NCBI GenBank assembly: GCA_016193315.1
Contig: JACPSJ010000001.1
Coordinates: 727,478-791,477 of the forward strand
Length of the DNA: 64,000 bases
DNA from: Candidatus Kerfeldbacteria bacterium
GTDB lineage: Bacteria > Patescibacteriota > Patescibacteriia > SBBC01 > CAIJZX01
Reading direction: 5' to 3'
Part shown: piece by piece, positions 2,753 through 63,640 of the stretch
Layout of the letters: each line of letters begins with the position of its first letter
Position numbering within the stretch: position 1 is the first letter of the stretch
Translations under genes and position numbers: made by a program
Notes under the pieces: generated by a model
The model's database searches: none
Told to the model about the DNA's origin: nothing
The model's input: only the letters and a program-made list of their open reading frames with translations

Positions 2753-5185
<2,433 letters not shown>

Positions 5186-6738: not shown

Positions 6739-8947
6739 GCTTCACCAGCCCATCTTTGATCGTGGCTTCGAGTTTGTCAACCTCGGCTTTCATTAAGGTC
6801 CGGTCGGGGGATTGAAAGATGAGTTCGAAGGTCAGGCTCTGCTGCTGCCCTTGCTGAAATTGATCGATTTTCCTAATGGTCGTCAGGAGTCCTCCGCCCA
6901 GCCGGCGCAATGTTTCATGAATACTCGGGGCCGATAACCGGCGGGGAATCCAAAGAGAAATATCTCTTTTGACTGACGGAAATTTCGATCGGGCCTGGTA
7001 TTTTTTCGGCCCCCACCCTTGGTTGATGTCGTCGAGATTGAATTCTACCCATTCGAGATCCCGTCCTTTCATTTGGTCGTGTGCGATCGGGCGCAGCAAA
7101 CCCGTCACTCCAAGCGCTTCCTGGAATAACCGTAGGTCCTCTTCAAGCCCAAGACCGCCCCCGGTTTTGTGACATCGCCCAAGGGCCAGAATCCATGGTT
7201 GAAGTTTCATCTCTTTGCCAAACACACGCCCGACCTCAAAAATCCTTGTATCGTGCCCCGCATCCGCGGCGGACATAAGAATACGGCGGATACCGGGTTT
7301 GAGGCTCAGCCGAAGGTATTGCTGCGTCTGATCAAGCGGGTTCGCGACTCTTACGTGTGCGTTGCGGTCTCCGGCATTGGAACTCTCGTCTCCACCGTAA
7401 TACGTATGGGTGATAACCTCAAGAAAACCTAAACGAGCCAGCGTGTCTCTCAGCTGATCCTTCAAGACAAGTGAGAATGGTAATGGTTTGGGGATCGACG
7501 GCGCCGTCGGCCACGACTCCAGAAGATGCTCGTATCCCACCATCCGCCCCACTTCATCCACGAGGTCCTCGGGAACGGTCGCGTCAAGCCGCCACTCCGG
7601 CACCGTGACCTTCCATGACTTCGACCCAGCTACCTTGAAACCAAGTTTGCCTAAGGTGGCTTTGCTTTTCGCGGCGGCAATGTTCGTCCCTAGGCGTTCC
7701 TTGACGTACTTTGGGTTGAAGGTGATGATTTTGGATTTTGACTTCACACCGCCAACCCGGACACTCCCCTGTTCCAACGTTCCGCCGCAAAGTTCAACGA
7801 TGAATGACGATGCAGCTTCGCTCGCTTCCTCCGGCAAACTTTGCCACAGTCCGCGTTCGAACCGTTTTGACGCTTCGGAGACTAAACCAAGCTTCCGCGA
7901 CGTCCGGCGGATCGAGATCGAATCAAAAATAGCCGCTTCGATGATGATGTCCTTGGTCGCATCGGACACCTCCGAATCGCGTCCGCCCATGATCCCGGCC
8001 AAGGCGGTCGGGCCGCGCGGGTCGGCGATGACGAGCATACTCGGATCCAGCCCGCGCGTCTGGGCATCAAGCGTGACGAGTTTCTCACCCACCCGCGCGG
8101 TCCGGACCACAATTCTTCCGTCTGACACTTTGGCGGCGTCGAAGGCATGGAGCGGCTGGCCGTACTCCAGCATGATGTAGTTCGTGGCGTCGACCACGGC
8201 GTTGATCGGCCGCATGCCGGCCGAGCGGAGACGTTGCTGTAACCAAGCGGGTGACGGACCGAGTGTTACGCCGTGGATGACTCGCGCCATGTAAACCGGA
8301 CATTGTTTGGGTGCCAGAACTTGGACCGCCACCGATCGCCCGGCCGGACGTTTGGCTCGGGGCGGTGCCGGTGAGGTTAGTTTTGGAGTCGTTCCGAGTA
8401 TGGTTCCTATTTCCCGCGCCAATCCTCGCACCGACAGCAAATCCGCCCGATTGGCCGGGATGGCCAGGTCGAGAATAACGTCCGACGCCCCGAGCACGCG
8501 CCCCAACGGCGTTCCGACTTTGATCGCGGTATCCAGAACCAGGACCCCGGCATGATTGTATCCTAGTCCAAGTTCATCCTCGGCGCAGATCATACCACCT
8601 GACTGAACGCCACGGATGGTTCGCGATTCGACGATTTGGCCGTTGGCGAGTTTCGCCCCCACCAATGCCACTGGGACCTTTTGGCCAACTGCGATATTCG
8701 GCGCGCCGCAGACGATCTGGCGTGGTCGGTCGCCGGGCTTGGTTACGACCTCGGCCAACTGCAGTTTGTCGGCATTCGGATGCGGCTTGATGGAAACGAT
8801 TTTGCCGACCACAAACTTCTCGAACTGACCGCGTCGATCAATCAGCTGCTCGACTTCCAGCCCGTGCATCATCAACGTCGCCACCAACTTCGGAGTCGGC
8901 GGCAAGCGGGGCAAGAATTCTTTCAGCCAAGAGAGGGGTAAGAGCAT
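6719..8947 (-). CDS. pheT: phenylalanine--tRNA ligase beta subunit
   Basis: 742 aa. N-terminal tRNA-binding OB fold (…KIVSIKPHPNADKLQLAEV…), B3/4 and B5 domains, and a C-terminal anticodon-binding domain. Confidence 0.9.
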   Translation of the reverse strand: MLLPLSWLKEFLPRLPPTPKLVATLMMHGLEVEQLIDRRGQFEKFVVGKIVSIKPHPNADKLQLAEVVTKPGDRPRQIVCGAPNIAVGQKVPVALVGAKLANGQIVESRTIRGVQSGGMICAEDELGLGYNHAGVLVLDTAIKVGTPLGRVLGASDVILDLAIPANRADLLSVRGLAREIGTILGTTPKLTSPAPPRAKRPAGRSVAVQVLAPKQCPVYMARVIHGVTLGPSPAWLQQRLRSAGMRPINAVVDATNYIMLEYGQPLHAFDAAKVSDGRIVVRTARVGEKLVTLDAQTRGLDPSMLVIADPRGPTALAGIMGGRDSEVSDATKDIIIEAAIFDSISIRRTSRKLGLVSEASKRFERGLWQSLPEEASEAASSFIVELCGGTLEQGSVRVGGVKSKSKIITFNPKYVKERLGTNIAAAKSKATLGKLGFKVAGSKSWKVTVPEWRLDATVPEDLVDEVGRMVGYEHLLESWPTAPSIPKPLPFSLVLKDQLRDTLARLGFLEVITHTYYGGDESSNAGDRNAHVRVANPLDQTQQYLRLSLKPGIRRILMSAADAGHDTRIFEVGRVFGKEMKLQPWILALGRCHKTGGGLGLEEDLRLFQEALGVTGLLRPIAHDQMKGRDLEWVEFNLDDINQGWGPKKYQARSKFPSVKRDISLWIPRRLSAPSIHETLRRLGGGLLTTIRKIDQFQQGQQQSLTFELIFQSPDRTLMKAEVDKLEATIKDGLVKLGATIR

Positions 8948-11064: not shown

Positions 11065-11150
11065 CCCCTGCCTAGCCGGCGGGGGATTTTTCCGTGGTTG
11101 GCGCCTTGACAACAGACGACCAACAGCGCTAGGTTGTACGGGTTGTTTGC

Positions 11151-11298
11151 GGCGGGGTGCTCGAGAGGATGATGAGATGCCGACTACGCGGGTCGGTAGG
11201 TCCCAGAGCCACGATGCAGAATCTCAAGCTGTGTCCGCAATGCGGAATGCCTCCTTGAGAATCTGGGGCCCATGGGTTCGAATCCCATCCCCGCCGCC
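11151..11298 (+). tRNA. tRNA-like gene with ~115 nt of extra internal structured sequence (isotype unresolved)
   Basis: Perfect 7-bp acceptor GGCGGGG (11151-57) / CCCCGCC (11289-95). Canonical T-arm ATGGG-TTCGAAT-CCCAT directly 5' of the 3' acceptor strand. Discriminator G, then CC. D-arm-like CTCG-AGAGGATGA-TGAG. The interior holds a 6-bp hairpin (gccgac…gtcggt) and a 12-bp hairpin (cagaatctcaag…cttgagaatctg) not explainable by a 76-nt cloverleaf. Confidence 0.3.
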
Positions 11299-11447
11299 TC
11301 GTATGCCCACCAACATCCTGATCACGTTCCTTTAGCGCCTGTCGCTCAGCTTGGAGAGTCACACCTTGCCAAGGTGGTTGCCGGAGTTTTCCACCCCGCA
11401 CCCATCGAGGTGCGGTGGACGTTCCTCTCAGGCGCTTCAACCTGTCA

Positions 11448-11625
11448 GCTCGGGTAGCTTAGCCCGGTAGAGCGTCTGATTCGTAATCAGATGGTCGCCG
11501 GGTCGCGGCGGGTTGAGGAACAAAGCAGATGAACTGCTTCATCTGCGTCCCGACGCGACGGGCGTCGCCATGTTTCGAAGGAACGGCGACGCCCAGGGCC
11601 ATGCCAAATCCGGCCCCGAGCTCCA
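11448..11625 (+). tRNA. tRNA-Thr(CGU) gene interrupted in the T-loop by a ~100-nt insertion
   Basis: Acceptor GCTCGGG (11448-54) pairs perfectly with CCCGAGC (11615-21), followed by discriminator T and encoded CCA. D-arm GCTT-AGCCCGGTA-GAGC. Anticodon arm TCTGA-TTCGTAA-TCAGA (anticodon CGT). Variable loop TGGTC. T-stem 5' strand GCCGG (11497-501). Then ~100 nt of hairpin-rich sequence. Then T-loop remainder CAAAT plus T-stem 3' strand CCGGC (11610-14) abutting the acceptor 3' strand. Confidence 0.5.
11524..11552 (+). repeat. 27-nt hairpin repeat, copy 1 (aagcagatgaactgcttcatctgcgtcc)
   Basis: 9-bp perfect hairpin gcagatgaa/ttcatctgc with loop ctg, inside the tRNA-Thr T-loop insert. Near-identical copy at 34841-34869. 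Both copies are followed by a second hairpin whose loop contains atgYttcgaagga. Confidence 0.5.
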
Positions 11626-11711
11626 AGTCTTACCCCCCATCACTCGATGTGGGATTTTTTTTATCGTCCGAAACTCGCAATCTTTTGGCAGCCGCGCTAC
11701 GCACCGAACCC

Positions 11712-34492: not shown

Positions 34493-34554
34493 GGTTGTTG
34501 GTCTTACTGAAAACTAGTCTAGCATATTTAGCTACTTTCCCCTAAGGCCGCGGC

Positions 34555-34930
34555 GAGCGATCGGGAGCCGCGACAGAAAAATACCTGGTCGCGAGGAACG
34601 TTTGCAAGACTGGGTCTGGTGGGGTCGGGGCGGCATTACGCGGAGCGGGATAGCGAGTAAATTGCTTTACTCGCGGCCGCCGAGACGGGCCGAGCTCTGT
34701 TTCGGAGGAATAGCGAGGCCCAAGAGGCAACGAGCAAACGGACGATCGACACACAAGGGAAGGGAGGCAGTCCCGACCGCGAAAGCGCGTCGGGACGGTC
34801 GGAACGGGCCGTAGACCGGCAGCCGAAGGCCAAGCAGATGAACTGCTTCATGTGCGTCCGGTCGGAGGTGGGCCGGCCGATGCTTCGAAGGAGCCGGACG
34901 GCTCAGGGATACCATCGGTTTCCCTCCGAG
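34555..34930. ncRNA. candidate structured non-coding RNA (unclassified)
   Basis: ~390 nt with no convincing ORF between two co-oriented genes. Very GC-rich with many perfect hairpins (e.g. gtcccgaccgcgaaagcgcgtcgggac; cgcgagtaaattgctttactcgcg). Contains copy 2 of the 27-nt hairpin repeat. Confidence 0.25.
34841..34869 (+). repeat. 27-nt hairpin repeat, copy 2 (aagcagatgaactgcttcatgtgcgtcc)
   Basis: 27/28 identity with 11524-11552. Followed by a second hairpin with loop atgcttcgaagga, as in copy 1. Confidence 0.5.
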
Positions 34931-47913: not shown

Positions 47914-50900
47914 TTAGGCCCGCGCTAAACCAATATCGGCTTTTTTACCGTCCAGCTCGATGGTGGTTTTGTGGCTGACTCCGTCGAGACTCGGCGACGC
48001 GGTTTTCGCCCGAACCTCTGGCAAAATTCGCTGGGCGTACCGCTCCACCACCTGACCGGCCAACGTTTTAGGCTGCACATACAGGACGATTTGATCGGCC
48101 GGCTTCAGGCCGGCAGTTTTTCGCAAGGCGTTGATCTCACGCACCAGATCACGAACCATCCCCTCTTCTTTTAGTTCATCGCTGACCGTCGTGTCGAGCG
48201 CCACTCGATCAGACGACATCCATTCCTTGCCGGACGGCAGCGACTCGGCCACGTGAATCTCTTTGACGTTCAGTTCTTCACGCACGATCGAATCAAGGTC
48301 AGGCCGGAGCGCGGCCGTCATCACCAATTGCGCCAGCGGTTGTCGTACTTTCAAGCCGGCTTTGGCCCGCAGCGCATGGCCTTGCTCAACGATCTGCTTG
48401 GCCAGCGCCATGTCGCTCAGCAGCCGCGCGTCAATTTCGCCGACCGATGGCCAGTCTTCGAGGTGGACAGATTCTTTGTCACCGCCAACAACGTGGTACA
48501 CATGCTCCGCCAAAAATGGGATGAACGGAGCCATCAGTTTCGACAACTTCCGGAGCACGTGCTGCAGTACGACGCTGGCCACTTGCATTTCATCCGACTT
48601 GAATCGATCCCGGCTCCGCCGGACATACCAGGTTGAAAGATCGGTCACGAACGCGCCAATGGCTCGCGCCGCGCCGGTAATGTCATAGTGCTCTAGACGC
48701 TTGGTCACGTCTTTCGTCAGGACATTGACCATCGAATGAACCCAGCGGTCGAGCGGGTGGTTCGCCCGACCAACATTCGTAGATTCGTAGCTCCTATTCG
48801 TAGGTTCGTAGTTTTTATTTGTAGATTCGTAGAGTTGCCAAAAACTGACTACGTTCATCAAAATCAAGAATGTTTTCTTCACCCCTTCGCCAACAATCTT
48901 CGGGTCAAAGTTTTTCGTGTCCCACGGCTGGTTGGCCGTGTACATGAACCAGCGCAGAGCATCAGCGCCGTGCTTGGCAAACAGCTCGTCCAGATCACCG
49001 TAGTTCTTTAGCGATTTTGACAACTTTCGACCTTGGGTGTCGTTCAGGTGGCCGAGCACCAGGACGTGCCGGTACGATGATTCCTTCACCGCGCCGGCGC
49101 GCTGGAGCAAGGTGCTGATCGCCAACAAGGTATAGAACCAGCCACGCGTTTGATCGATCGCTTCGGAAATGTAGTGGGCTGGATAGCTTCCGGCACCGTC
49201 GATCTGGTTCTTGTGCTCGAACGGGTAGTGCCACTGGGCAAACGGCATGGCGCCGGAGTCGAACCAGGCGTCGGCCACCTCCGGAACACGTTTCATGGTG
49301 CCGTGGTGACATTGCGGGCATGACCATGCCAGACCATCAATAAAGGGCCGGTGGGGATCGAAACTGCCATCCGACTGGAATACCGTGGCCGGAAATTTCA
49401 ATTCGATCGGCCGGCCGTTTGGCACGTCCTCCAGTCGGGTTATGGTCGGCGCCGGCTGCAGGGATAAAGCCCACTCCGTCACCAGAATCGGGTCGGCGTG
49501 GGTGACGATGACAAAGGTTTTTCCTTCGTGCTTGGCATCGAGTTCGCGCAGAAAACTGAGCATCCGCTGACGAATGTCGGTCCACGTTTCTCCCCCGGGT
49601 GGTGCGTCGTGCACCCGTTTCGAACGATCACCGAACGTGGCGTGGAATTCGGCAATCGTTTTTCCTTCAAAAACTGGTCCGATGTGGTACTCGTTGATCC
49701 GTTTGTCCTCGGTCACGGCGATGCCCAGCTCTTGACCAATAATTTCAGCCGTTTGCCTGGCCCGGAGAAACTGTGAGGAGTAGATGGCGTCAATCTTTTC
49801 CGGCTCCAATTTCTGCGCTCCGCGTTGGGCTTGTTTTCTCCCCGACTCAGTCAGGGGACACAAATTTTTGTTGGCTGGTTCGGTGTTGAGCGTATTGTTC
49901 TCGTTGTTCGTGGATCCGCCGTGTCTGACGAAGAAATAGCGATTCCTGGTCGGTAGCCGATCGAGTAAGTCTTGGTAACTGCCGAGGCACTCCTGGTGCC
50001 CACACTGATCACATCGCCAGATCGGCAGCGGCGTCCCCCAGAAGCGCTCGCGCGAAACAGCCCAATCCTTCACCTCTCGCAACCACTCCCCAAAGCGTCC
50101 GGCTTTAATGTGCGCCGGGTGCCAATTGATTTTATTATTGTTCGCGATCAGTTGATCGCGTAGCTTCGACATCTGAATGAACCACGACGTTTTGGCGTAG
50201 TACAGGAGCGGATGTTTGCAGCGCCAGCAGAATGGATAATCGTGGGTGTAGTTCTCAATCTTGTACAACTTGTGATGCTTCTCCAGCCAGTCAACAATCT
50301 TCTTTTGCGTCTGACCTTTGGCATCGCGAACCTCCAAACCAGCCCACGGCTTTACCAACTCGTCGAACTTTCCTTGCAAATCGACGGTGTGGATCGTGGG
50401 CAAGTCAAGTTTCTTCCCCAATTGAAAATCATCTTCGCCGTACATGACTGCGGTGTGGACGACGCCGGTGCCTTCGTCGGTGGTGACGAAGTCGGCGGGC
50501 ACAATAGAATAGGCGTGTTCGTATTCCTGAGCCCACCGGCGAAGAATCTCTGGTGCCGTAAGGCCGGTCGGTTCCAGAGACCCTTCGCTTCGCCGCGGGC
50601 TTCGCTCAGGGATACGGCTCTTCCCTACTTCACGCAAATCCAGAAAATCAAACAGCGGCTTGTATTTCTTCCCGACCAGTGCGGCACCGGAAACGGTTTT
50701 TGCCACCTGCTCCTTCCTGAATCCTAAATCCGGCATTCGGTTCTCGGCCAAAATGTAGTACTCGTCGCCGCGCCGAACCCGGGCATACCGAATCTTTGGA
50801 TCCACAGCTAGCGCCACGTTCCCCGGCAGCGTCCACGGCGTCGTCGTCCAGGCCAGCACAAACGTTCTCGGTTCATCAACTAGTTCGAATTTCACATACG

Positions 50901-51501
50901 CTGCTGGCTCGGTTATCCGTTCGTACCCTTGGGCGACTTCATGACTCGACAGGGCCGTACCGCACCGCGGGCAATACGGCACGACTTTGTAATCCTGAAC
51001 CAACAGTTTCTGATCCCAAATCTGCCTGAAAATCCACCATAGTGTTTCAATGTATTCCGGCTGATAGGTGATGTACGGGTGCTCGAGATCGAGCCAGAAC
51101 CCCACGCGCCTGGTCATCTTCTCCCACAAGTCTTTGTACTTCCACACCGATGCCTTGGCCTGGGCATTGAACCTCTCGATGCCGTACTTCTCGATATCTT
51201 TCTTGCCGGAGATGCCGAGTTCTTTTTCGACTTCTATTTCAACCGGCAGCCCGTGCGTGTCCCAGCCGGCTTTGCGCTCGACACGATAGCCCTGCATCGT
51301 TTTGAATCGCGGAATGATGTCCTTGAACGCCCGGGTTTCAACGTGCCCGATGTGCGGGATGCCGTTGGCCGTTGGTGGTCCGTCGTAGAATACAAAGTCT
51401 CCTTTCGGTGAGGGTTTCGCTAGCGTTTTCTTGAAGATGTCTTGGGCTTCCCAATCCTTGAGAATCTGTTCCTCGAGTTCGGGAAATTTGGGGATGGGCA
51501 T
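47914..51501 (-). CDS. ileS: isoleucine--tRNA ligase with inserted histidine-phosphatase (phosphoglycerate-mutase-family) domain
   Basis: HIGH (PHIGH), KMSKS (KLSKS), CP1 editing domain and C-terminal anticodon-binding region. 1195 aa, versus ~940 aa typical. In-frame insertion at aa ~497-731 carrying RHG and downstream catalytic His of the PGAM/histidine-phosphatase fold (motifs in findings), bracketed by two CxxC pairs. Confidence 0.9.
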   Translation of the reverse strand: MPIPKFPELEEQILKDWEAQDIFKKTLAKPSPKGDFVFYDGPPTANGIPHIGHVETRAFKDIIPRFKTMQGYRVERKAGWDTHGLPVEIEVEKELGISGKKDIEKYGIERFNAQAKASVWKYKDLWEKMTRRVGFWLDLEHPYITYQPEYIETLWWIFRQIWDQKLLVQDYKVVPYCPRCGTALSSHEVAQGYERITEPAAYVKFELVDEPRTFVLAWTTTPWTLPGNVALAVDPKIRYARVRRGDEYYILAENRMPDLGFRKEQVAKTVSGAALVGKKYKPLFDFLDLREVGKSRIPERSPRRSEGSLEPTGLTAPEILRRWAQEYEHAYSIVPADFVTTDEGTGVVHTAVMYGEDDFQLGKKLDLPTIHTVDLQGKFDELVKPWAGLEVRDAKGQTQKKIVDWLEKHHKLYKIENYTHDYPFCWRCKHPLLYYAKTSWFIQMSKLRDQLIANNNKINWHPAHIKAGRFGEWLREVKDWAVSRERFWGTPLPIWRCDQCGHQECLGSYQDLLDRLPTRNRYFFVRHGGSTNNENNTLNTEPANKNLCPLTESGRKQAQRGAQKLEPEKIDAIYSSQFLRARQTAEIIGQELGIAVTEDKRINEYHIGPVFEGKTIAEFHATFGDRSKRVHDAPPGGETWTDIRQRMLSFLRELDAKHEGKTFVIVTHADPILVTEWALSLQPAPTITRLEDVPNGRPIELKFPATVFQSDGSFDPHRPFIDGLAWSCPQCHHGTMKRVPEVADAWFDSGAMPFAQWHYPFEHKNQIDGAGSYPAHYISEAIDQTRGWFYTLLAISTLLQRAGAVKESSYRHVLVLGHLNDTQGRKLSKSLKNYGDLDELFAKHGADALRWFMYTANQPWDTKNFDPKIVGEGVKKTFLILMNVVSFWQLYESTNKNYEPTNRSYESTNVGRANHPLDRWVHSMVNVLTKDVTKRLEHYDITGAARAIGAFVTDLSTWYVRRSRDRFKSDEMQVASVVLQHVLRKLSKLMAPFIPFLAEHVYHVVGGDKESVHLEDWPSVGEIDARLLSDMALAKQIVEQGHALRAKAGLKVRQPLAQLVMTAALRPDLDSIVREELNVKEIHVAESLPSGKEWMSSDRVALDTTVSDELKEEGMVRDLVREINALRKTAGLKPADQIVLYVQPKTLAGQVVERYAQRILPEVRAKTASPSLDGVSHKTTIELDGKKADIGLARA

Positions 51502-60056: not shown

Positions 60057-60460
60057 GGGGATGTACAACAGTTGATCGATCGTTGACAGTCCATCGCGCT
60101 CATGCCGACACGCCCACGCCGTCGTTACTGTGTGGGAACATGAGAAGTGCCAATACACTTTTCAGCAGGCTGAAGACCGCGGTCGCTTCGGCGTTCCGCG
60201 CGCCTTTGCTTGCGCCTGCCTTTGCCTAAACAGTAAGGGCCATCCGTCCGGTTGACTCCGACTAGACCGATCGCGGGTGTCACCTCAGTCGGACCAGTGG
60301 TGAAACGTTCAGACTCATCACCGCGTACCTTCTGAACACCGTCGTCAGGATTCTTGTCCGTTCTTGACCTGATGGCGCGTACTGAGAACGGGCTGAGCAT
60401 GGAAGCCAGCGTGATGGATGGTCCGTCGAGACGCGGGTGCAAGACCCGCCATCTCCACCA
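60057..60460 (+). ncRNA. ssrA: tmRNA (transfer-messenger RNA)
   Basis: 3' end GCGGG-TGCAAGA-CCCGC (T-arm) + CATCTCC + A + CCA (60458-60). 5' GGGGATG forms a 7-bp acceptor with G3:U70 wobble. 5' uugacaguccauc pairs with gauggUccguc just before the T-arm (helix 2). In-frame Ala-rich tag candidate …AFRAPLLAPAFA-stop (stop at ~60227-29). smpB lies 600 nt upstream. Confidence 0.7.
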
Positions 60461-62908: not shown

Positions 62909-63083
62909 ACGGGTATCCAAAGACAGCTTACAGCCTTGTGGCTGAGGGTTGTTTGTAGTGGGCCCGAACCCGCACCAGGCCCTTGACTTGATCGGGGGTG
63001 CGCAGCAATCTCTCCCCCGTGACCCCGTATGGTTCTCGCTTCGCTCGAACCATGGGGCAGGCAAGAGGGCTCGTTTCGCTCTG

Positions 63084-63158
63084 CGGACCCAAGGGGATTT
63101 GAACCCCTGATCTTCTCCGTGACAGGGAGACGTGTTAACCGGGCTACACTATGGGTCC
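63084..63158 (-). tRNA. tRNA-Asp(GUC)
   Basis: Minus strand: GGACCCA-TA-GTGT-AGCCCGGTTA-ACAC-G-TCTCC-CTGTCAC-GGAGA-AGATC-AGGGG-TTCAAAT-CCCCT-TGGGTCC-G. CCA not encoded. Coordinates ±2. Confidence 0.7.
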
Positions 63159-63640
63159 GCAGAGCGGATGAACTTTGCTGCGTGCCTCGCCCGTAAATTC
63201 GCGTTAGCGAATTGTACGGGCTTAACCACTACACCAACGGTCCGCATGAAGCGGGACAGGCCGGGAGACTCTAGATAAAAAGAATGGAGACGTGCGTCAG
63301 TCCCGCACCCGAGTGAAACGAGCGGTGCGGGATTAACCGGACTACAGTATGGGTCCGCGTTTGCGCCAGGTTCTTCTTGGCATGCCTGGCCCGTAGACCG
63401 GCGCGCGGCGACGGCTGTACGGAGCTAGCTGGGTTTCATTACGACACACTCTGCGAGCCATCACCGGCCTGGAAATTTGGCAGGGCGATTGTAGCATGGA
63501 AGTCGACATCCGTCCAGCCGCCTAGCAAACGCAAACCAGACCGGGCCGGAAACGTAGGCCGCCGGGTCCAACCACTATCCCAACCACCAGCCCACGGAGA
63601 TCGACGACTATTGCCCACCACCCTCGGCCGTGTATTTCAA

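Follow-up and report, generated by a model that had tools for sequence, protein, structure and literature searches.

A small folded module in the T loop of a tRNA-Thr gene and in a G-rich spacer of a Candidatus Kerfeldbacteria genome

The gene at 11448-11625 (+) reads as a tRNA-Thr(CGU) gene in which the T loop is split by 101 nt and which is otherwise canonical. What is the inserted segment, and how did a part of it come to recur in an intergenic spacer elsewhere in the 64-kb window (the whole stretch of DNA that was analyzed, 64,000 nt)? To our knowledge, the only interruptions known in bacterial tRNA genes are group I introns, which sit in the anticodon loop. It is unusual to find a tRNA, perfect in other respects, whose T loop carries a structured insert with clean borders and paralogs elsewhere. 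We found that the insert carries a folded RNA module of ~95 nt, which is present in three copies at two loci of the window (copy A in the tRNA gene, copies B1 and B2 in the spacer). In order, a helix (P1) closes off a hairpin (H1) of 9 bp with a YUGC loop, and a bulged hairpin (H2) of 35 nt follows.

The split tRNA-Thr gene and the three copies of the module

The 5' part of the tRNA-Thr gene (11448-11503, +) was identified by direct reading, by the Rfam tRNA model and by blastn, in which 11454-11504 matches annotated phage tRNA-Thr genes. It carries the acceptor strand GCUCGGG, a D arm with A14 and G18G19, the anticodon arm UCUGA-UUCGUAA-UCAGA and the variable loop UGGUC, and it ends with the T-stem strand GCCGG followed by G54 and U55. 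The 3' part (11605-11625, +; direct reading) contains CAAAU (T loop 56-60), the T-stem strand CCGGC, the acceptor strand CCCGAGC, discriminator U and an encoded CCA. The tRNA body shows a 7-bp acceptor stem, G1-C72, C2-G71, U8, A14, G18G19, U33, G53-C61 and the encoded CCA. The Rfam tRNA model (RF00005) aligns with the T arm deleted and scores 26.1 bits, below the gathering threshold of 29. The interrupted gene is missed by ARAGORN, and low-threshold ARAGORN runs allowing introns gave noise only. Without 11504-11604 the same program calls tRNA-Thr(cgt) with a score of 115.8 and the T loop GUCAAAU, in which G54 is atypical.

The insertion (11504-11604, 101 nt, +) was placed in the T loop between U55 and C56 by in-silico deletion and by a covariance model (CM) of the module. 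It consists of module copy A and the tail AGGGCCAUGC. The CM matches copy A over 11502-11600 with 108.5 bits, thus the inserted segment is essentially the module; copy A and the insertion borders agree to within 1 nt on the 5' side and 6 nt on the 3' side. The junction (flanks GCCGGGT and CAAATCC) has a 1-nt C ambiguity only. The initial annotation had proposed a check of the borders for target-site duplications; none was found by direct reading and in-silico excision, and terminal inverted repeats, the other mark of MITE- or RPE-type repeats, are missing too, the ends CGCGGCGGG... and ...AGGGCCATGC being non-complementary by direct reading. The insert folds compactly, apart from the T stem. 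Inspection of the folds revealed no bulge-helix-bulge at the junctions, the 5' junction lying in P1 and the 3' junction being single-stranded. A group I intron has a catalytic core (P3-P9) and usually 200 nt or more; the 101-nt insert has no such core and no Rfam match at E <= 10, and it was rejected as a known ribozyme or group I intron. It was concluded that a tRNA gene was there first and received the module as one unit.

In copy A (+), P1 pairs UCGCGgCGGG (11503-11512) with CCCGaCGCGA (11549-11558). This unit (11503-11558) is seen in the minimum-energy and centroid folds (z = -4.5) and in the pair counts, and a purine-rich strand, UUGAGGAACAAA, lies inside P1 in the fold. H1 (11525-11546; folds and pair counts) is enclosed by P1 and reads GCAGAUGAA-CUGC-UUCAUCUGC. 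H2 (11560-11594; fold, pair counts and RNAalifold) reads GGGCGUCGCC / AU bulge / GUUUC-GAA-GGAAC / GGCGACGCCC. The 28-mer AAGCAGATGAACTGCTTCATCTGCGTCC at 11523-11550 (+) contains H1 of copy A and occurs a second time at 34832-34859 (+), with 27 of 28 positions identical and one mismatch. This recurrence had been noticed in the initial annotation and is borne out, although its second site had been placed at 34841-34869, 9 nt off. The window has two matches at <=3 mismatches compared to 0.00 in 100 shuffles, and the pair has E = 1.3e-8 in blastn-short. Together with a duplication of the tRNA-Asp 5' end, it makes up the sole significant intergenic-intergenic similarities found by blastn-short in the window. 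The hairpin had been described as perfect, with 9 bp and a CUG loop. The 9 bp hold; the loop is the 4-nt CUGC, and the stem is perfect in copy A only. The accompanying hairpin with a shared loop motif was also found in both places, with ATGYTTCGAAGGA downstream of both 28-mers (at 11570 and 34880) within 35-nt hairpins at 11560-11594 and 34870-34904, but the supposed loop is itself structured. In copies A and B2, H2 consists of a 10-bp outer stem, a 2-nt AU bulge, a 5-bp helix GYUUC/GGARY with a U.G pair, and a GAA triloop.

Copy B2 (34814-34904, +; centroid fold, pair counts, CM 93.8 bits) has P1 formed by GACCGG (34814-34819) with CCGGUC (34858-34863), H1 at 34834-34855 with one G.G mismatch, and H2 at 34870-34904. 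A third, more diverged copy of the two-hairpin unit, B1 (34629-34721, +), had been overlooked when the element was taken to occur twice. Its minimum-energy fold shows P1, H1 and H2, and it scores 96.3 bits with the CM. P1 of B1 pairs GGCGGC (34629-34634) with GCCGCC (34676-34681); its H1 counterpart (34653-34674, +) reads GCGAGUAAA-UUGC-UUUACUCGC; its H2 counterpart (34687-34721, +), 35 nt exactly, reads GGGCC-GA-GCU / CU bulge / GUUUC-GGA-GGAAU / AGC-GA-GGCCC. Each copy folds this way individually (minimum-energy or centroid folds), and the sequence of P1 differs from copy to copy. The apical part of H2 in B1, UUCGGAGG (34701-34708), is complementary to CCUCCGAG (34923-34930) at the 3' end of the spacer over 8 bp with one wobble. 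This post hoc find points to a possible long-range pairing. In copy A, GAGGAAC (11515-11521, in the strand within P1) is complementary over 7 bp to GUUCCUC (11420-11426) on the 3' side of the T region of the neighboring Gly-like gene, a match which may be due to chance.

In the three-way alignment, 94.4% of the cells are standard pairs, compared to 35 to 53% when the partners are slid by 1-3 columns. Changes on both sides are found in 9 of 24 pairs, a number reached by 0 of 500 shuffles. H1 of B1 has both-side changes in 4 of 9 pairs relative to A and B2. Unguided RNAalifold agrees; it predicts both H1 and H2, with 10 pairs showing double changes. The earlier claim of a structure conserved through compensatory stem changes is thus confirmed. 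The asymmetric features are kept in all three copies: the NU bulge, the invariant U.G pair, and the YUGC and GRA loops. There are five wobble cells, all of them G.U on the + strand, and no A.C cells; because of this, and because the spacer is G/purine-rich on the + strand, the + strand fold is the best one. It is also the sense strand of the tRNA hosting copy A. Retention of the structure while the stems diverge, in both hairpins and three copies, fits a fold under constraint. We conclude that copying between loci has involved a discrete structured unit, and that the fold, including its asymmetric details, was kept while the stems changed.

The identity between copies is uneven. H1 of A and B2 are identical at 21 of 22 positions, and B1 matches either one at 13 of 22; H2 identity is 63-74% in every pair of copies. 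Between A and B2 the 28-mer is identical at 27/28 positions versus 30/48 in the remainder (Fisher p = 0.0008). Since the near-identity of H1 is specific to A and B2 and does not extend to B1, it is a property of two copies and not of the family. Recent homogenization, re-copying or gene conversion of H1 is a more likely source of the 28-mer identity, as judged from the sequences, than a universal sequence constraint. The initial annotation had regarded the pair as something other than a recent duplication. This holds only in part, the identity being mosaic; for H1, recent re-copying is likelier.

The two host loci and searches for further copies

Copies B1 and B2 lie in region B (34540-34930, +), a 390-nt G-rich spacer defined by its composition and folds. 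It sits between a DUF2207 gene and a gene for a 225-aa protein, both on the - strand, and is antisense to both. Its + strand composition is G 37.6%, C 26.6%, A 22.3% and T 13.6% (window average G 27.9%, C 29.1%). Besides the two copies there are two hairpins, one of 11 bp capped by GAAA (34770-34796) and a terminal one (34905-34925). The + strand of region B showed neither a recognizable promoter nor a terminator. In the relatives, the syntenic spacer is an unrelated AT-rich sequence of 219 nt (locus L020), 98 nt (L021), or 33 nt after an extra PMT gene (L022 and L023). Because relatives with the same gene order have a different spacer, region B is taken as a gain in this lineage. Short motifs in it look like those of RNase P, SRP, 6S RNA or tmRNA by eye; a divergent member of these families was rejected after cmscan found nothing at E <= 10, and region B has no Rfam match at that threshold. 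A CsrB/RsmZ-type sponge for CsrA was also rejected, GGA/ANGGA not being enriched (15 GGA versus 12.2 +/- 2.8 in shuffles). There is no recognizable tRNA or RNA gene around B1 and B2. Their 5' flanks are not similar to tRNA parts. The 3' flank of B2 resembles a tRNA 3' end at a level reached by 7 of 500 shuffles, but it includes the conserved end of the DUF2207 gene; the non-coding part alone is not significant (118 of 2000 shuffles).

Copy A lies in a transcription unit (11107-11661, +) delimited by sequence and by a terminator scan. The unit comprises TTGACA (11107-11112)-N18-TAGGTT, three tRNA-like genes (11149-11298, 11335-11436 and 11448-11625) with tRNA-Thr(CGU) as the last, and a terminator (11636-11653) with a T8 run. 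The promoter-like TTGACA site was read by eye, and a scan with a stricter consensus made no call. The first tRNA-like gene (11149-11298, +) has a canonical T arm (AUGGG-UUCGAAU-CCCAU) and an 8-9-bp acceptor stem, together with an atypical anticodon arm without U33 and a giant extra arm of ~72 nt; standard tRNA finders miss it. Comparable but unalignable RNAs are found at the same locus in two relatives (L006, ~8760-8890, -; L024, ~3690-3830, -). The second (11335-11436, +) is tRNA-Gly(GCC)-like, with good acceptor, D and anticodon arms, a T stem of 4 bp only and a ~30-nt hairpin in the T loop; removal of the hairpin does not restore an ARAGORN call. Both neighbors of tRNA-Thr look degenerate.

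The hairpin of the Gly-like gene belongs to a second family. Its stem CCGCACC/GGTGCGG occurs exactly twice in the window versus 0.02 expected, once in that T loop (11396-11415, +) and once in the D loop of a truncated tRNA-Asp 5' duplicate (63303-63330, -). The normal tRNA-Asp gene is at 63083-63158 (-), and the region upstream of it (63160-63358, -) carries tRNA pieces. One is the 26-nt duplicate of the tRNA-Asp 5' end (63333-63358, 24/26 identical), with the hairpin after the D loop and truncation before the anticodon loop; the other is a tRNA-like piece at ~63160-63245 (-) with a 14-bp hairpin. In the relatives the syntenic cluster contains odd tRNA-likes with other anticodons, in which the T or D loops are replaced or filled by different hairpins; it is absent altogether in one relative. 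No recurrent module was found among these clusters of the relatives. Because the CCGCACC family occurs twice in tRNA-like loops and the relatives have other hairpins in their T or D loops, the sequences suggest that hairpin insertion into tRNA-like loops is a general process in the clade. A whole class of loci is flagged in the clade, in which tRNA-like genes are clustered and carry hairpins in their elbow loops.

Other RNA genes were noted along the way. The window has an ordinary tmRNA gene (60057-60460, +, Rfam 65.5 bits). One relative has a 75-nt tRNA (L006, 8605-8679, -) with a Thr-like body, no long extra arm, the anticodon UGA (a reader of Ser codons) and an acceptor C.A mismatch. In another (L025, 1-715 and 3890-4400), an RVT_1 reverse-transcriptase gene is located just past the helicase gene flanking the cluster; two tRNA-likes there, Phe GAA-like and Thr GGU-like, have T loops filled or replaced by hairpins, and the Phe-like one is without the 3' acceptor strand.

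Further copies were sought at several scales. The CM, of a kind that the initial annotation had proposed for two copies, detects the three training copies in the window (next best score 9.9 bits) and none in 168 kb of relatives' loci (13 loci). PheS and the 225-aa protein match proteins of a Candidatus Kerfeldbacteria MAG (longest contig 857 kb) at full identity. The source is a groundwater site (metagenomes SRR12113385-425). The nearest sampled relatives are distant, with amino acid identity of <=75% (PheS) and <=67% (225-aa protein), so absence of the module there is weak evidence. Genome, metagenome, virus, phage and plasmid collections yielded no further copy in pattern scans (blastn for phages and plasmids). 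The two-part pattern had 10 matches in genome contigs, all in unrelated taxa, and the one from Saccharibacteria was read and is without the rest of the module. The metagenome 20-mer had eight matches and the viral 18-mer seven; in these the rest of the module is missing and the contigs are of unrelated composition. A degenerate H2 pattern had 0 matches in viral contigs. These scans require exact or near-exact matches, so diverged relatives of the module would be missed by them. Five other contigs of the same population in four Logan assemblies are 100% identical, without strain polymorphism.

The initial annotation had also pointed to a TnpA/TnpB/IscB gene as a possible partner. Among the ~50 ORFs of the window (~7% of the ~857-kb genome) there is no gene for these proteins or for a transposase, RAYT, integrase or reverse transcriptase, and none for a splicing endonuclease or RNA ligase. 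The ORFs are housekeeping genes or have no Pfam match. One of them (47914-51501, -) encodes an IleRS-like class I tRNA synthetase (1195 aa) with a histidine phosphatase domain, His_Phos_1, (residues 523-678) between two catalytic-domain stretches. Rfam cmscan (E <= 10 for both regions, E <= 5 for the whole window) gave chance-level matches only to self-cleaving ribozymes, RNase P, SRP, 6S and other families, and no Rfam family matches the module in either region. Peptide coding was considered and rejected. ORFs begin at an ATG within H1, but A and B2 do not have ATGYTTCGAAGGA in the same reading frame, so the module is not coding; ORFs on the opposite strand translate into Arg/Pro/Ala-rich junk. 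No complementary targets for the module loops were found in the window.

Origin and possible role of the module

The reading we favor, to which we assign a probability of about 40%, is that of a small non-autonomous, structure-dependent insertion module comparable to the Rickettsia palindromic elements (RPE) and the CIR repeats. It would be lineage-restricted and neutral or selfish. This reading is supported by the coincidence of insertion borders and module borders and by the in-silico excision that restores tRNA-Thr. In this Kerfeldbacteria genome, the entire module would have been copied into non-coding DNA that is transcribed, and the mosaic identity between the copies implies re-copying or gene conversion. 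The fold would be kept because copying requires it, whether through a trans-acting enzyme on single-stranded DNA or through an RNA intermediate; alternatively, stable RNAs might tolerate insertions only if these fold compactly. Copy A would project from the tRNA elbow as a three-way junction and probably disable the contact between T loop and D loop, which would leave a dispensable or repurposed tRNA-like RNA. Against an insertion element, there are three copies at two loci in 64 kb and none in the relatives' loci or the collections scanned, and the module is without terminal inverted repeats, target-site duplication or an enzyme gene in the window. All invariant nucleotides of the tRNA body are intact, too, which is unexpected in a disabled gene unless it was interrupted recently or its RNA still has a use.

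The conserved asymmetric features and apical loops would fit a host-useful RNA domain equally well. Such a domain could be a binding platform for a protein or RNA through the YUGC/GRA loops and the U.G helix, present as a tandem pair in a ~390-nt non-coding RNA (region B) and displayed once on a tRNA body that would supply RNase P and 3'-end processing as well as stability, as a natural "tRNA scaffold". Covariation around a conserved bulge, wobble pair and loops, the + strand specificity of wobbles and purine richness, the promoter-like site and terminator of the unit with copy A, the GAAA-capped hairpin of region B, and a tRNA-Thr body canonical save for its T loop are all consistent with a use for the host. 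This reading is set back by the missing promoter and terminator of the region B + strand, by the absence of region B from the sampled relatives (distant as they are), by a sequence of H1 that is not conserved in B1, and by the degenerate look of the neighboring tRNA-likes; no partner is known and no loop-complementary target was found in the window. Taken together, we regard a host-useful domain as possible but rather doubtful.

The high-scoring tRNA with its 7-nt T loop GUCAAAU, all invariants and an encoded CCA, which appears upon removal of exactly 101 nt, together with an insert folded compactly away from the T stem, could also indicate an intervening sequence of a type new to bacterial tRNAs. 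As part of the pre-tRNA-Thr transcript, it would be excised with joining of the ends, or released so as to leave a two-piece tRNA, by a protein endonuclease and ligase, by RNase III-like processing or by self-cleavage; the product would be a functional tRNA-Thr(CGU). The missing group I core, bulge-helix-bulge and Rfam ribozyme or intron match argue against it, as do the atypical G54 of the restored loop, the position of B1 and B2 outside any recognizable tRNA or RNA gene, and the Gly-like neighbor that is not rescued by hairpin removal. Our literature search turned up no non-group-I tRNA splicing in bacteria, and we consider this reading quite improbable. A broader proposal, in which the insert at T-loop positions 55/56 is either such a sequence (non-group-I excision) or a retained scaffolded domain that also occurs twice in a ~390-nt non-coding RNA, seems unlikely to us. 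The hairpins could instead act at the DNA level, recognized by a trans-acting HUH/Y1 enzyme (REP/RAYT-like or IS200/IS605-like) or left as attachment relics of an element integrating in T loops; the "compensatory" changes would then come from single-stranded DNA recognition or from template-switch correction of quasi-palindromes. Enzymes of the HUH/Y1 type typically bind hairpins with conserved bulges, and tRNA T loops are known crossover sites of integrases. In favor of this idea, both loci are indel hotspots in the relatives, and hairpin-bearing tRNA fragments adjoin tRNA-Asp. Palindrome correction without selection is disfavored because it should erase the bulge, the U.G pair and the internal mismatches that persist in three copies. 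A classic REP or IS system is disfavored because enzyme genes are missing from the ~7% of the genome viewed and the copy number is low, and the flank of B2 offers no significant homology to a tRNA 3' end. We judge recognition at the DNA level to have a small chance of being correct.

If the favored reading of a selfish insertion module holds, it would help to explain why tRNA genes in such genomes are missed by ARAGORN and by the Rfam gathering threshold. If the insert is instead processed or functional, it would point to a new RNA processing route or to a natural tRNA-scaffolded RNA.

Comparison with known systems

Bacterial group I introns (anticodon loop) and archaeal bulge-helix-bulge introns of tRNA genes resemble copy A in that a discrete insert, once taken out, leaves a canonical tRNA. 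Non-canonical introns of archaeal tRNAs can lie in the T loop. As far as the cited account goes, archaeal tRNA introns occur at unusual positions (PMC4090602). In contrast to these introns, the 101-nt module is too short for a group I core, has no Rfam match and no bulge-helix-bulge, sits in a bacterial host, and has paralogous copies outside tRNAs. The subterminal hairpins of REP/RAYT and IS200/IS605 systems resemble it in being imperfect and GC-rich, with conserved bulges and strand-specific structure. The module differs from them in having no GTAG-type head, a larger size and two hairpins, and no TnpA, RAYT or TnpB gene is found in the window.

BOX/BIME repeats are arranged in a tandem or modular fashion in intergenic spacers. 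The CIR repeats of Caulobacter and Brucella have no terminal inverted repeats and fold into two stem-loops, one from the 5' half and one from the 3' half (PMC2229807). Two independent stem-loops and the lack of terminal inverted repeats are thus common to CIR and the module. It shares no sequence or motif with CIR or BOX/BIME, however; CIR carries a methyltransferase site, and none of these repeats is known to be inserted in a tRNA loop.

RPEs are found in intergenic DNA, and they also sit inside tmRNA and RNase P M1 RNA genes without destroying these genes (PMC2229807). Like the module, they are structured repeats of ~100-150 nt in the reduced genome of a host-dependent bacterium, in stable-RNA genes too. 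They differ in their ~12-bp terminal inverted repeats and many copies, compared to no such repeats and three copies so far for the module. The module further consists of two side-by-side hairpins with a closing helix, has no sequence similarity to RPEs, and has a tRNA as its host gene. A selfish module would extend the RPE-type colonization of stable-RNA genes to the Candidate Phyla Radiation. By this comparison the module belongs to no described family and is best classed with the small structured repeats that colonize stable-RNA genes.
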